Below are positions 33,471-57,973 of a DNA stretch of 64,000 bases, piece by piece. Under the pieces are notes generated by a model, which searched no databases, was not told where the DNA came from, and was given only the letters and a program-made list of their open reading frames with translations. The stretch lies in assembly GCA_020351835.1 (NCBI GenBank), contig CP070669.1, forward strand, positions 1,736,827 through 1,800,826. The letters are read 5' to 3'. This DNA comes from Nitrospirota bacterium (GTDB lineage: Bacteria > Nitrospirota > Thermodesulfovibrionia > Thermodesulfovibrionales > BMS3Bbin05). Numbering within the stretch: position 1 is the first letter of the stretch; each line of letters starts with the position of its first letter. The translations under genes were made by a program, and so were the position numbers.

Positions 33471-34667
33471 ATGATCATTCCAAAGAATAAAAAGATCCCT
33501 AAAGGGTTCCGGTTTGCCGTTGCATCGGCCGGCATCAAACATAAAGGGCGCGCAGACATGGGACTCATAGTATCTGACGTAGAGGCTGCCGCAGCAGGGG
33601 TCTTTACTACGAACAGGGTACGTGCTTTCAACATTGACCTTAATAAGAAGAAGTTGCGATACGGACGAGGACAGGCAATAGTCGTTAACAGCGGCAATGC
33701 CAACGTATGCACTGGGAAGCAAGGAGAAAAGGACACTATTTACATGGCAGATTCAACTGCACAGCTTATAGGTGTCGCACCCGGAAGAACGTTCGTCTGT
33801 TCTACCGGCGTAATTGGCACACCCATGCCAATGGATAACGTCCGCAAGGGTATCAATACGCTTGCCAGGGATCTCGGCAAACACTCTATCAGTGACGTTT
33901 CCAATGCGATAATGACAACAGACAGGTTCCCAAAGACCTCGTCCAGACAGATCATGGTCGGTGGTAAGATGGTGACCATAACTGCATCCGCTAAAGGCGC
34001 AGGTATGATAGATCCGAATATGGCAACGATGCTCTGTTTTATTATCACTGATGCCAGGATAGAAGGTAGTGCTATGAAGAAGGTCCTTAAAGATGTTGTC
34101 AATGATACGTTTAACACAATAACGGTCGACGGTGACATGAGCACAAGCGATACTGTGCTAATGATGGCGAACGGACTTGCCGGGAACAAGATAATAAAAC
34201 CCGGGTCTAAGGATATTAAGAAGGTAAAAGCAACTGTTCACGATATTTGTTACGAACTTGCAGAAATGATGGTCAAGGACGGTGAAGGTGCAACCAAGAT
34301 AATAGATATAGAGGTCAAAGGGGCCAAGACGAAGGCCGACGCCCGAAAGGCAGCCGATGCGATCGCCAACTCACTCCTGGTCAAGACAGCGATATACGGT
34401 AATGATGCCAACTGGGGGCGAATAATTGCGGCTGCCGGATATTCGGGTGCAAACTTTAACCACAGGAAGGTCAGTATTTTCTTTAATCGTTTATTGGCTG
34501 TCAAAAATGGTGTATCAGCAACGACCGATAAGGCTGCAAACGCAGAATTGAAGAAGAAAAAAGTGAAAATAACGATAGATCTCAATGCGGGCAAATGTGC
34601 GGCAGCCGCCTTGTCTTGCGACCTCACCGAAGAGTACATCAGGATCAACGCCGGATATCGCACCTGA
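33471..34667 (+). CDS. argJ: Bifunctional ornithine acetyltransferase / N-acetylglutamate synthase
   Basis: The blocks GFRFAVASAGIK and the autoprocessing site PNMATMLCFIITDA are present. The C-terminus is EEYIRINAGYRT. Confidence 0.93.
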   Translation: MIIPKNKKIPKGFRFAVASAGIKHKGRADMGLIVSDVEAAAAGVFTTNRVRAFNIDLNKKKLRYGRGQAIVVNSGNANVCTGKQGEKDTIYMADSTAQLIGVAPGRTFVCSTGVIGTPMPMDNVRKGINTLARDLGKHSISDVSNAIMTTDRFPKTSSRQIMVGGKMVTITASAKGAGMIDPNMATMLCFIITDARIEGSAMKKVLKDVVNDTFNTITVDGDMSTSDTVLMMANGLAGNKIIKPGSKDIKKVKATVHDICYELAEMMVKDGEGATKIIDIEVKGAKTKADARKAADAIANSLLVKTAIYGNDANWGRIIAAAGYSGANFNHRKVSIFFNRLLAVKNGVSATTDKAANAELKKKKVKITIDLNAGKCAAAALSCDLTEEYIRINAGYRT

Positions 34668-34791
34668 ACCGATATAACTCTTTGTTATTATTGCATTTAA
34701 TTAGACTCTATCAGGGATAATACCTAAGCGCTTGCGCAATCTATTAACAGGCTACCTAAATTTATAAATTTAAAATACCTAAATTTTTTTC

Positions 34792-34820
34792 TTGACAAAG
34801 GTGAATAATTGTGATTAAAT
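34792..34820 (+). promoter_or_regulatory. Near-consensus sigma70 promoter with extended -10 and an upstream A/T tract
   Basis: TTGACA lies at 34792-34797. A 17-nt spacer ends in TGa, followed by TTAAAT at 34815-34820. The element is preceded by aaatttataaatttaaaatacctaaattttttt. Confidence 0.5.
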
Positions 34821-34826
34821 ATACCC

Positions 34827-34892
34827 ATAAGCGCCTCGTTACCTCCCCTAAGCTGCTGTCCACAATCCACGGACAGCAGCTACTTTTTTTTT
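34827..34892 (+). ncRNA. Candidate small RNA (about 65 nt) with a CCUCC-containing single-stranded region and its own terminator
   Basis: The predicted transcript is AUAAGCGCCUCGUUACCUCCCCUAAGCUGCUGUCC-acaauccac-GGACAGCAGCUAC-U9. There is no ORF. The unit lies between the argJ stop (34667) and a convergent gene. Confidence 0.45.
34851..34892 (+). terminator. Strong rho-independent terminator
   Basis: A perfect 11-bp stem forms between AGCTGCTGTCC (34851-34861) and GGACAGCAGCT (34871-34881). The loop is 9 nt. Nine T residues follow at 34884-34892. Confidence 0.85.
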
Positions 34893-35059
34893 AAACCATA
34901 ATAACAGTTTCAATTGAGGTTGTTTTTGATATATCTTATTGAAATATATAGATTTTTGCTGGAAAAATAAAGCCGGACCGGTCGAGATCAGTCAAGGCTA
35001 TCATTGTAAGCTGTTGTTTTTATTTAATAATTATATGCTCTTTCGGGCTCCGGCAAGGT

Positions 35060-36181
35060 TCAGTCTTCCAGTTCTATCAGGTCATAATCCCTACTTCCGA
35101 GCCCTAGTCTTTCTGCCTCCTCCACCTGTATATTGTATGGCTTCTTATGGAGCTTTCCAAAGGTATCTCCCGGTTCACGGATATCCTCGTCTGAAGCCAG
35201 TGAATCACCCAGCACAGCCGTCCTGTCAAGTATGTCTATTGATGCCTGCTCGATCGCAACTATATCATCAGAGAGGAGTATGCCCGCATCCTGAATAACG
35301 GGGACCTCGGCCGCTGGCATACAGTCACACTCCGGCTGGACCTCTGTCAGGAAGTTTATATACAGCACTTTATGTTCTTTAAATGTAGACAGGACCGCGG
35401 ATGTCGCCTCCGCAAGTGACCTCATGAACCTTTCATCGTCCTGCGGGAACCCGATAGATCCAGTCGGGCATCCGCGTTCGCACCTTCCGCATCGCCAGCA
35501 TTTCTCCTCTTCCCATTCCATCTTTCCACCGCTAAAAGATATGATATCCAAGGGACATATCTCAACGCACTGGTCACAAAGTTCACACAGTTCCTCATCC
35601 CACTTCATCCTTCCCTCTCCTATCGTGTGCATAGAGCCGCGTCCGCATTTCCAACCGCACTCTCTGTGAGATGAACTTACTCCTCCCATGGCCATGTTCT
35701 TTATTGCACCCGCATACCCGGCATTGATATGTCCCTTAACGTGCGAACATACTACCATCGCAGGGACATCATGTATAAGAGATGCTACAGCGATCTCTTT
35801 GAGTATATCTCCAGCCTTTACCATAATATTGTCATTACCATAAAGACCGTCCGCAATTACGACAGGGGCTCCTACTGAGAGGTTATTGATACCGTTATGA
35901 TTAGCAACCTCAAGGTATTCAACACCCATGATCCTGACCGTATCTGTTACAAAGGGTTTTGAGCCGATCGCAATGAGTGCATCTACTACCTTTCTTATAA
36001 AGACCGGTCTTACGATCCTGTGAGCTCCGAACGAACCGAAATGGGTCTTTACAGCGACATATTCATTTGCGAAATATCTATTAAGCTCTGCTTTTTTAAG
36101 TAGTCCTTCCAGCTTGCCTGGCATGCTGTGCTCATACTTCCACTTGTCAACCCGGGCTTTTGAGAAATATACATTTGACAT
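35060..36181 (-). CDS. DUF362-domain protein with an inserted 2x[4Fe-4S] ferredoxin domain
   Basis: The N-terminus is DUF362-like ([28 protein letters not shown]). The cluster motifs are [12 protein letters not shown] and [12 protein letters not shown]. An AAGGAGG SD is present. Confidence 0.75.
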
Positions 36182-36248
36182 ACAGGTGCCTCCTTTCGAA
36201 ATTCATAATTCTTGCAATATGTTCACTATAAGATATATATTTAAAAAT

Positions 36249-38924
36249 ATGGTAAATCTGATACTTAGAAAGATTTTTGGCACAAAGACCGAAAGAGAGC
36301 TTAAACGCTTATTGCCCCTTGTAGAACAGATTAACGGACTTGAAGCCTCTATATCAACCCTCTCTGACGAGCAACTTCAGGGCAAAACGGAGGAGTTCAG
36401 GGCAAGGCTGAGGAGCGGAGAAACTTTGGACGATATACTGCCGGAGGCCTTTTCGGTCGTGAGAGAAGCCTCCAGACGCATCCTTAATATGAGGCATTTC
36501 GATGTTCAGTTAATGGGTGGCATGGTACTTCATGAGGGTAAGATAGCAGAGATGAAGACCGGGGAAGGAAAGACGCTCGTCGCGACGGCCCCTGTTTACC
36601 TTAATTCAATAGAAGGAAGGGGTGTTCACGTCGTAACAGTAAATGACTACCTTGCCAAGAGAGATGCCCAGTGGATGAGCCCTGTATATCATTTTCTCGG
36701 TCTTACCGTAGGGGTCATTCAGTCCGACCATTCTTTTTTTTATGATCCTTCTTATACAGGAGATGATGTGCGCTTGCAGAACCTGAGACCTTGCAGCAGA
36801 CATGAAGCATATTCAAAGGATATAACATACGGTACCAATAATGAGTTCGGATTTGACTATCTTAGAGATAACATGAAGTACGAATTCAGTGATTATAGTC
36901 AGAAGGTCCACAACTTTGCGATAGTGGATGAAGTGGATAGTATCCTTATAGACGAGGCCCGTACCCCGCTAATAATCTCAGGGCCGTCCGAAGAATCAAC
37001 TGATAAGTACTACAATATAAACAGGATGATCCCTAAGCTTCAGGTCGATCAGGACTTTACTATAGATGAAAAGGCCAAGACCGCCATTCTCACCGAGGAA
37101 GGAAGTGTAAGAGCAGAGCAACTGCTAAATGTTGACAACCTTTTCGATCCATCTAACATCGATCTTGTTCATCACGTTCTTCAGGGCCTTAAGGCTCATC
37201 ACCTCTTCAGGAAGGATGTTGATTATGTTGTCAAGAACGGCGAGATCATAATAGTAGACGAGTTCACTGGGAGGCTCATGCCGGGAAGGAGGTGGTCGGA
37301 CGGGCTTCACCAGGCTATAGAGGCTAAGGAACATGTAAAGATCGCAAGCGAGAACCAAACGCTTGCCACGATCACATTTCAGAACTACTTCAGGATGTAT
37401 GACAAATTGGCTGGAATGACAGGAACGGCAGATACTGAGGCAGAGGAGTTCGCAAAGATATATGATCTTGATGTAGTGGTAATACCGACCAATAGGGACA
37501 TGGTAAGAAATGACCATTCAGATATGATATATAAGACCGAAGCTGCAAAGTTCAGGGCTGCAATAAATGAGATAAGGGACTGCCATGAAAGAGGGCAGCC
37601 GACTCTGGTCGGGACTATATCTATAGAAAAGTCTGAACTTCTCAGTAAGATGCTCAAAAAGGAGAAGATACCCCACTCAGTGCTAAATGCAAAGTATCAT
37701 GAAAAGGAAGCGGAGATCATAGCTCAGGCCGGCAGGCTTGGGGCGGTGACCATAGCAACAAACATGGCCGGAAGAGGCACTGATATTGTGTTAGGTGGAA
37801 ATCCCGGTATAGTTTCGAGAGAGATACTGAGAGATATTAACGATCCTTCAGATGAACAGTTGCAGGATGCTCACAGCAAAGCAGAGGAGCAGTGCCTTGC
37901 CGAAAAAGAGAAAGTACTTGAAGCCGGAGGACTACATATCCTTGGAACGGAAAGGCATGAGGCAAGACGTATCGACAACCAGTTGAGAGGCCGTTCAGGA
38001 AGGCAGGGAGACCCTGGAAGCTCCAGGTTCTATCTTTCACTTGAAGATGACCTGATGAGGATATTCGGTTCTGACCGGATATCAGGGCTTATGGACCGAC
38101 TCGGAATGGAGGAGGACGTACCGATCGAGAACAGACTCGTGAGCCGCGCCATAGAGACATCACAAAAGAGGGTCGAGTCACATAACTTCGACATCAGAAA
38201 GCATCTTCTTGAGTATGACGATGTAATGAACAAGCAGAGAACCGAGATATATGCATACAGGAGAGAGATACTCACATCGGATTCACTTAGGGACAAGGTT
38301 GTTGAAATGATAGACATATGCATTGATGAGCTATTGTTTATTTATTGCCCTGAGGATAAGCACCCTGAAGAGTGGAATTTTTCAGGGCTTAAGGAGGCCT
38401 ATTACGGTATTTTCGGGTTCACTCCATCCGGAACGGAGGATATAAAGGGCATTGAAGCGCTCAGGCAGGAACTTACTGAACAATCGTTAACCTTCTACAG
38501 TGTCAAAGAGAGCGAGATAACCGAAGAGGTCATCCGCAGCATAGAAAAAATGGTCATGCTCCAGGTAGTAGATAGCCAGTGGAAAGATCATCTTCTGGCG
38601 ATGGACCACCTTAAGGAAGGAATTGGGTTAAGGGGTTATGGACAGAGAGATCCTCTTGTTGAATATAAAAGAGAGGCATACGATATGTTCACTGATATGA
38701 CAGACAGGATCAATACGGAGATAATTACAAGAGTGTTCAGAGTTCAGATTAGATCAGAGCAGGAATTATCAGGCTCTATCAATAGATCTCAAAAAATGGT
38801 ATACAGTAGAGGGGAGTCTGAGTCAAAACAGCCTGTAAAGAAGACCGCTAAGGTCGGGAGAAACCAGCCCTGCCCTTGCGGGAGCGGCAAAAAATACAAG
38901 AAGTGTTGTGGTGCTAATGTATAA
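36249..38924 (+). CDS. secA: Preprotein translocase ATPase SecA
   Basis: I trimmed the start to [20 protein letters not shown], the conserved SecA N-terminus. The block [12 protein letters not shown] and the DEVD box are present. The C-terminal zinc finger is [14 protein letters not shown]. Confidence 0.95.
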
Positions 38925-53181: not shown

Positions 53182-53582
53182 ACGTACCTCCTTTTCGCAC
53201 ATTTAACGAACGAACTTCTTTCCCTTATTTAAAAAAATCAACTAATCGTTAGAACCCCTCCTGAGACAATGTATTATTTTTATATACCGCTAATAATTAC
53301 ATATAATATTTTATATGTCAATAAGGAATTTTGATAAGCAATATTCATACCACAGCACTGTGCCATAACGAATTATTTAACTAGTTGATCTACAAAATAA
53401 ATTCTTGCGATCAGAACGCTGTCAGGACATGGATAACAAGTCTTATTTGTGTATTTTCGTAACGCCTCGGGACGCTATTATTCAATTTGATTTAAGCAAT
53501 GAATATTTTGTACCATGAATGCACACTTTTGCTCCAGGGAAGTGTTTCTCACCGTCTATAATTCTATGCCGGAGGTAACTGA

Positions 53583-57884: not shown

Positions 57885-57973
57885 CATTTGTCCGGGAGAG
57901 CTATGCATGAATTTATCCGGGCAAATCTGCATAATATCAGTACTTCGCATTTTCAATATATTAGGAGGTAACA

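Follow-up and report, generated by a model that had tools for sequence, protein, structure and literature searches.

What is the short unit of promoter-like and terminator-like sequence that lies between argJ and a convergent gene in this Nitrospirota genome, and does it give rise to an RNA of its own? The Nitrospirota, which comprise sulfate reducers, magnetotactic bacteria and subsurface lineages, are for the most part uncultivated, and no description of regulatory RNAs in this phylum was found in the literature. The stretch of DNA that was analysed, hereafter the window, is 64 kb long; within it argJ (33471-34667, plus strand, stop at 34667) is preceded by rplM-rpsI-argC and faces a gene on the opposite strand, which is adjoined on its far side by secA:

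35060-36181, minus strand: convergent gene of 373 aa with DUF362 and 4Fe-4S ferredoxin domains (Pfam PF04015 and Fer4), stop at 35060.

A first-pass annotation of the window had proposed a small RNA (sRNA) gene in the gap between these two genes, which it gave as 390 nt; the gap exists and is 392 nt in length. From the comparison of related genomes described below, we consider the unit very probably to be a free-standing, independently transcribed small non-coding RNA gene that is conserved across the Nitrospirota. The full statement, in which this sRNA also acts in trans by pairing with G-rich sites of the Shine-Dalgarno type, seems to us reasonably likely.

The 5' part of the unit has the layout of a promoter, and its elements can be placed as follows:

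34776-34790, plus strand: upstream A/T element, TACCT followed by a T7 run and abutting the -35; UP-element-like, or possibly a binding site for a factor or regulator.
34792-34797, plus strand: -35 hexamer TTGACA (consensus), read directly in the sequence.
34812-34820, plus strand: extended -10, TGaTTAAAT, with the TG at 34812-34813 and the hexamer TTAAAT at 34815-34820; the spacer is 17 nt.

The features by which a sigma-70-type promoter with an extended -10 is recognised in sequence, i.e., a -35 hexamer, a spacer of 16-18 nt, TGn and a TATAAT-like hexamer, are thus all present. The TTGACA, the 17-nt spacer and the TG were found in the window where the first-pass annotation had placed them, as was the upstream A/T tract, a motif similar to which occurs in most relatives: (T/A)ACCT and a T-run stand at an equal distance 5' of TTGACA in most family members. 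The extended -10 which had been described is also there, but its hexamer matches the consensus at four of six positions and is without the A at position 2 that is usually critical. In relatives, the -10 hexamer reads TATAAA, TATTAA or TTTTAT with the spacing unchanged. Neither the promoter nor the terminator of the RNA gene was picked up by a generic scanner for such elements, because its rules need an A at -10 position 2 and a loop of at most 8 nt. The pattern TTGACA-N14-TGN-TWWWWT occurs twice in the 64-kb window against 0.03 occurrences expected under shuffling, an excess of about 60-fold.

A lack of conservation in the promoter elements had been named beforehand as the result that would overturn the sRNA reading. 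Across the distinct instances of the unit, the elements are conserved and the spacer drifts: an exact TTGACA is found in 130 of 147, the 17-nt spacer in 127 of 146 and the TG of the extended -10 in 126 of 146. In an alignment of near relatives (A1), no change is seen in TTGACA, in TAATT.TGATTAAAT or in the upstream T-run, while a 4-6-nt block of the spacer varies by lineage, as do the bases at and near +1. Such drift in the spacer and at +1, beside fixed promoter elements, is a pattern of conservation of the promoter type and not of the coding type.

Downstream of the promoter, the predicted RNA and its parts occupy the following positions:

34827-34892, plus strand: predicted sRNA transcript of about 62-66 nt, with a putative start at about 34826-34828 and its 3' end in the U-run.
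34829-34852, plus strand: unpaired 5' seed, AAGCGCCUCGUUACCUCCCCUAAG, with the near-invariant core CCUCGUUACCUCCCCUAA at 34834-34851.
34851-34881, plus strand: terminator hairpin, with a perfect 11-bp stem (34851-34861 with 34871-34881) and a 9-nt loop, ACAAUCCAC.
34884-34892, plus strand: U-tract (T9) of the intrinsic terminator, after a 2-nt gap from the stem.

In relatives, the conserved block begins 5-11 nt 3' of the -10, so that it starts essentially at the 5' end of the RNA. No ATG, GTG or TTG occurs within 34827-34892, which bears out the earlier statement that neither an ORF nor a start codon lies between the promoter and the terminator. The 3' part carries what identifies an intrinsic (Rho-independent) terminator, a GC-rich hairpin and a direct U-tract. 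The first-pass annotation had counted this terminator, with its perfect 11-bp stem and nine U residues, among the strongest in the window; at -20.8 kcal/mol, it is the strongest combination of hairpin and T-run on either strand in our own scan. The hairpins of relatives have a mean of -19.2 kcal/mol and a mean of 7.9 T in the 10 nt from the start of the T-run. The 66-nt RNA as a whole folds at -21.4 kcal/mol (z = -6.4 against dinucleotide shuffles), with strong pairing limited to the terminal hairpin.

Covariation among related genomes, which had been put forward as a check on the unit, is evident in the hairpin. Among 94 homologues, 8 of the 11 pairs have changed on both sides, 92.2% of the hairpin cells are paired against at most 68% when the partners are slid, and none of 500 shuffles reaches the observed covariation score, in an alignment which was fitted to the covariance model and therefore favours the structure somewhat. 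RNAalifold returned the same helix, as the single one, and supported no helix in the 5' part. Conservation in the stem, and in the YCCCAC half of the loop, goes beyond what the structure requires.

The most conserved part of the unit is the 5' seed. Its core, CCUCGUUAYCUCCCCUAA, is at least 90% identical in every column across loci that were chosen without reference to the RNA (anchored on ArgJ or on DUF362), and conservation drops on both sides of it. When 92 homologues were folded one by one, UUACCUCCCCUA had an unpaired probability of 0.85-1.0, in keeping with the earlier prediction of an unpaired 5' part with a stretch resembling the anti-Shine-Dalgarno sequence. The resemblance to the 3' tail of 16S rRNA (ACCUCC...), the anti-Shine-Dalgarno, extends over ACCUCC only; a search of the related DNA that was collected turned up no 16S rRNA 3' end. 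Furthermore, any CCUCC pairs with any GGAGG, so this likeness alone discriminates little. The DUF362-anchored loci show natural variants of the seed, e.g., AAAUGCCUCGUUAUCUCCCCUAAU, and most of the changes are transitions (C to U, G to A), which are compatible with pairs that are kept through wobble and may be read as weak evidence for them.

How far does this conservation reach? Homologues of its ArgJ place the window in the Nitrospirota, and its transaldolase is identical to one encoded on a 2.29-Mb Nitrospirota MAG contig. The order argJ, gap, DUF362 is kept in contigs whose ArgJ is 99%, about 70% and 62% identical to that of the window. From CATAAGCGCC through T9, the window and the genomes with ArgJ 69-70% identical agree at every position (100% identity), whereas the intergenic DNA around the unit is barely alignable in these same genomes. 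The unit persists where ArgJ identity has dropped to 62%, with changes in the loop, one G-C pair of the stem turned to G-U, and CCCCU turned to CCCUU.

A search for the 17-mer GCGCCTCGTTACCTCCC in a species-representative genome collection gave at least 120 matches. At least 105 Nitrospirota genomes match, all with the layout of promoter, seed, hairpin and T-run, two of these being cut by contig ends; the labels on the carrier records are Nitrospirae, Nitrospirota, Thermodesulfovibrionales, Thermodesulfovibrio, Ca. Sulfobium and Nitrospiraceae. Among the matches listed, 15 come from unrelated phyla, and these are without promoter and without hairpin and are roughly the number expected by chance. 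Two matches in viral contigs both lie inside a long ORF and were set aside as chance.

Since the 17-mer is invariant by construction in a set gathered in this way, which is biased to that extent, 80 metagenome loci were collected via the DUF362 protein alone. A covariance model (R1) was built from 60 sequences and run on these DUF362-anchored loci, 75 of which have enough 3' flank; the RNA is present in 54 of the 75. About 20 DUF362 loci are without the RNA at that site, and a few loci keep hairpin fragments only. Such fragments, e.g., CCCACGGACAGCAG and T's, were seen 3' of DUF362 at L157 (2623-2660), L144 and L134, and they look like decayed or rearranged copies where the gene has been lost at the site. 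R1 scores the RNA of the window at 84.3 bits (E = 3e-24). The gene is single-copy in the window, and an unfiltered search of the 64 kb with the model found no second copies or paralogues.

The surroundings of the unit are less constant than the unit itself. The DUF362 gene is its usual tail-to-tail neighbour in relatives, and most carriers are without argJ upstream, so the unit is not merely the terminator of argJ. In 24 loci, the neighbours are other genes, which differ by subclade, and the unit is intact there. On these comparisons, the RNA gene is a self-contained module.

We then asked whether the RNA belongs to a described family. A covariance-model search with Rfam 15 gave no match at the gathering score in the whole window, including tRNA, rRNA and riboswitch models, and at E of at most 10 the region 34600-35100 gave only low-scoring eukaryotic snoRNA and rRNA models, far below their thresholds. 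The first-pass impression that no Rfam family could be recognised has therefore held, and the literature, searched by topic and with the sequence itself, yielded no account of the RNA.

The closest analogue is Yfr1, to which the RNA is likened here without membership. Yfr1 is a cyanobacterial sRNA of 54-69 nt that occurs almost throughout one phylum (PMC2190773, PMC6778093), and its two stem-loops flank an unpaired stretch of 16-20 nt that contains the 11-nt motif ACUCCUCACAC (PMC2190773). Common to both RNAs are an ultraconserved, unpaired, C/U-rich motif resembling the anti-Shine-Dalgarno sequence, a 3' stem-loop that is a Rho-independent terminator, and a conserved genomic position; Yfr1, too, was found by motif search. 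However, Yfr1 has an extra 5' stem-loop, whereas the Nitrospirota RNA has its seed at the extreme 5' end and one supported helix. Its invariant block, of about 18 nt, is longer than the Yfr1 motif and differs from it in sequence, it comes from another phylum, ACUCCUCACAC is absent from it, and no Rfam model matches it.

RsaE/RoxS of the Firmicutes are trans-acting RNAs whose unpaired C-rich motifs recognise G-rich or Shine-Dalgarno stretches in the mRNAs of metabolic genes by base pairing (PMC6158497, PMC8216469). They resemble the Nitrospirota RNA in being conserved across a large clade, and the latter may have a second C-rich motif, YCCCAC, in its terminator loop. RsaE/RoxS are nevertheless about 90-115 nt long with several hairpins, carry their C-rich motifs in loops and have known targets and regulators, and no similarity between the two was found in sequence or by covariance model. 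A simpler layout is that of RybB and MicA, enterobacterial Hfq-dependent sRNAs with a single-stranded 5'-terminal seed, a Rho-independent terminator and a long U-tail. The Nitrospirota RNA has this same minimal layout and no sequence relationship to them, its seed being C-rich and anti-Shine-Dalgarno-like. The CcsR or 'cuckoo' sRNAs of Alphaproteobacteria carry anti-Shine-Dalgarno-like CCUCCUCCC motifs whose proposed partners are ribosome-binding sites; these motifs lie in hairpin loops, and the RNAs form tandem repeats beside DUF1127 genes. In contrast, the Nitrospirota RNA is a single copy in the window and has no Rfam match. As the defining features of Yfr1 are absent, and as RsaE/RoxS and the enterobacterial 5'-seed sRNAs are unrelated, the RNA is filed as a new sRNA family.

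A strong promoter, a conserved single-stranded C-rich 5' seed and a terminator with a long U-tail make up the architecture of a trans-acting base-pairing sRNA. In the mechanism that we propose, a near-consensus sigma-70-type promoter would start transcription about 2 nt 5' of the ultraconserved block, and the intrinsic terminator, a GC-rich hairpin and about eight U's, would end the transcript. The first 24 nt or so would remain unpaired and present the C-rich core as a seed, which would pair in trans with G-rich sites of the type GGGGAGGUAACGAGG (a Shine-Dalgarno sequence and spacer); this pairing would block ribosome access or alter mRNA stability. The hairpin and U-tail would give the RNA stability and might offer a chaperone binding site. 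The core complement GGGGAGGUAACGAGG resembles a Shine-Dalgarno sequence and its spacer, which makes occlusion of ribosome-binding sites the most economical mechanism. The U-tail has the length (about 7 or more) looked for in Hfq-dependent sRNAs; homologues of Hfq, ProQ and CsrA were absent from 1.38 Mb of related DNA, a sample that says little about whole genomes.

The searches for partners of the seed identified no target and left one weak lead. A duplex-energy scan of the whole window and of 65 start regions returned top matches that reflect generic Shine-Dalgarno strength. Across 1006 start regions from 185 loci, no neighbour gene family showed consistent complementarity to the seed; this test was blunt, because the reversed-seed control is itself C-rich. 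The DUF362 start regions (n = 121) had a median of -14.5 kcal/mol against -14.4 kcal/mol for the reversed-seed control, and the DUF362 5' leaders showed no conservation beyond the Shine-Dalgarno sequence. Close complements of the 18-mer core in 1.38 Mb of related DNA amounted to its own antisense strand and noise. Within the window, the core complement GGAGGTAAC occurs at three sites only, i.e., the antisense of the RNA gene and the starts of tkt (transketolase) and tal (transaldolase):

53571-53579, plus strand: GGAGGTAAC site at the tkt start region.
57964-57972, plus strand: GGAGGTAAC site at the tal start region.

Both genes lie in a single pentose-phosphate cluster (tkt, rpiB, gnd, tal, zwf and pgl, 53.5-61.4 kb), in which rpiB has GGGGTAACG. 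When this lead was pursued through homologues of Tal and a further four clusters, one relative, L211 (Tal 72% identical), proved to retain the tkt site, and five other tal starts have only GGGAGG. The occurrence of GGAGGUAAC at the tkt and tal starts is thus a weak pointer to pentose-phosphate genes as targets.

The tail-to-tail position of the DUF362 gene raises another explanation, in which the RNA would serve chiefly as the cis-antisense partner of this 4Fe-4S gene. The two transcripts would be fully complementary in most genomes, mutual control would come about by transcriptional collision, RNase III cleavage or an mRNA 3'-end sponge, and the DUF362 mRNA, too, would end at the shared hairpin. 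We regard this as unlikely to be the main role. The arrangement is nonetheless found in most of the 17-mer loci, besides the 54 of 75 DUF362-anchored loci given above, and in 91 of 138 loci the DUF362 stop either overlaps the T-run of the RNA or is no more than 10 nt away from it. Read on the DUF362 strand, the sequence after the hairpin is CUUAGGGGAGG, with no U-run, which makes read-through into the seed region plausible; with convergence as tight as this in most genomes, transcription from DUF362 probably continues there into the RNA gene, in antisense to it. Against this stands the spacing in the window, where the two genes are 167 nt apart (91-270 nt in the window and its near relatives) and the DUF362 gene has a weak hairpin and T5 of its own at about 34998-34962 on the minus strand. 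The partnership also breaks in both directions, since the unit is intact in the 24 loci without DUF362 and the RNA is missing from its site at about 20 DUF362 loci. Perfect complementarity in cis needs no conserved sequence, yet the seed is near-invariant; cis-antisense interplay cannot account for that invariance, and we keep it as the main rival or as an added role. The tight link to DUF362 hints at an additional or different role.

A second alternative, which we find a shade more doubtful, is that the RNA works by protein binding or mimicry and not by pairing with specific mRNAs. In one version, it would be a decoy of the 16S rRNA 3' tail that titrates a factor recognising the tail or competes for Shine-Dalgarno sequences. 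An invariant block of 18 nt over many species exceeds most multi-target seeds, the sequence itself is conserved in the stem and in part of the loop, and the promoter, strong and constitutive-looking, suggests high abundance. ACCUCC is common to the RNA and the anti-Shine-Dalgarno, and neither the neighbour-family search nor the complement search of 1.38 Mb pointed to a specific target. On the other hand, no candidate protein partner is known, the likeness to the 16S tail goes no further than ACCUCC, and the seed variants are mostly transitions, as kept base pairs would allow. A more elaborate form has an abundant housekeeping mimic of the 16S tail, showing an unpaired ACCUCCCC, that competes for Shine-Dalgarno sequences or titrates a factor binding the anti-Shine-Dalgarno, its abundance perhaps being tuned by the DUF362 mRNA 3' end as a sponge; to this we would give slightly less credence again. 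If true, it would set translation initiation globally in the Nitrospirota.

It is highly improbable that there is no independent RNA and that the hairpin is only the terminator of argJ, with a promoter that arose by chance in A/T-rich DNA. The hairpin does share the strand of argJ, lies 184 nt 3' of its stop and is the only terminator after that gene; it may also stop argJ read-through. However, most relatives are without argJ and still keep TTGACA, the 17-nt spacer and TG; the conserved block starts just after the -10 and not at the hairpin, the spacing between argJ and the unit varies, and the promoter pattern exceeds its expectation under shuffling as given above. This explanation was rejected since the unit is kept without argJ. 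A minus-strand small protein, from a 48-aa ORF at 34724-34870 which is in the ORF list of the window and is called in L005, L006 and L003, is scarcely credible and was likewise rejected, as the ORF contains a 1-nt indel in L004, where it is uncalled, spans a promoter spacer that varies in blocks and not at third codon positions, and has a start context that is not conserved across the RNA family. The locus shows gene callers putting spurious small ORFs on this RNA gene.

With the reading as a conserved sRNA gene, the Nitrospirota would have an sRNA gene that is clearly delimited, easy to recognise and represented by a covariance model, much as cyanobacteria have Yfr1. The near-invariant seed of about 18 nt implies a strongly constrained set of targets or a single, highly conserved partner, and this partner would reveal a core post-transcriptional circuit of the phylum. 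In practical terms, the gene could serve as a marker, with a reference promoter and terminator for the phylum.

Some minor features of the region were also recorded. In several relatives, the gap between argC and argJ is 400-800 nt (L002 2209-3001, L004 2601-3001, L005 2535-3001) against 22 nt in the window, and a minus-strand ORF of 52-53 aa is called in it. The spacer between the RNA gene and DUF362 in L002-L006 and L009 holds a GC-rich inverted repeat, TTATCTGCGC..ATCCGCGATAATCCGCGG (at about 4600-4680 in L005), which is absent from the window and may be a DUF362 terminator or a small repeat element. Beyond DUF362, the leader of secA (36182-36251, plus strand; start at 36249) is A/T-rich and without a recognisable Shine-Dalgarno sequence, whereas most genes of the window use the GGAGG type. 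The second match of the window to TTGACA-N14-TGN-TWWWWT, at 17175-17137 on the minus strand, has the -10 TAATTT, which ends 8 nt 5' of an ATG (17139) with which a long ORF begins; this makes a candidate leaderless mRNA.
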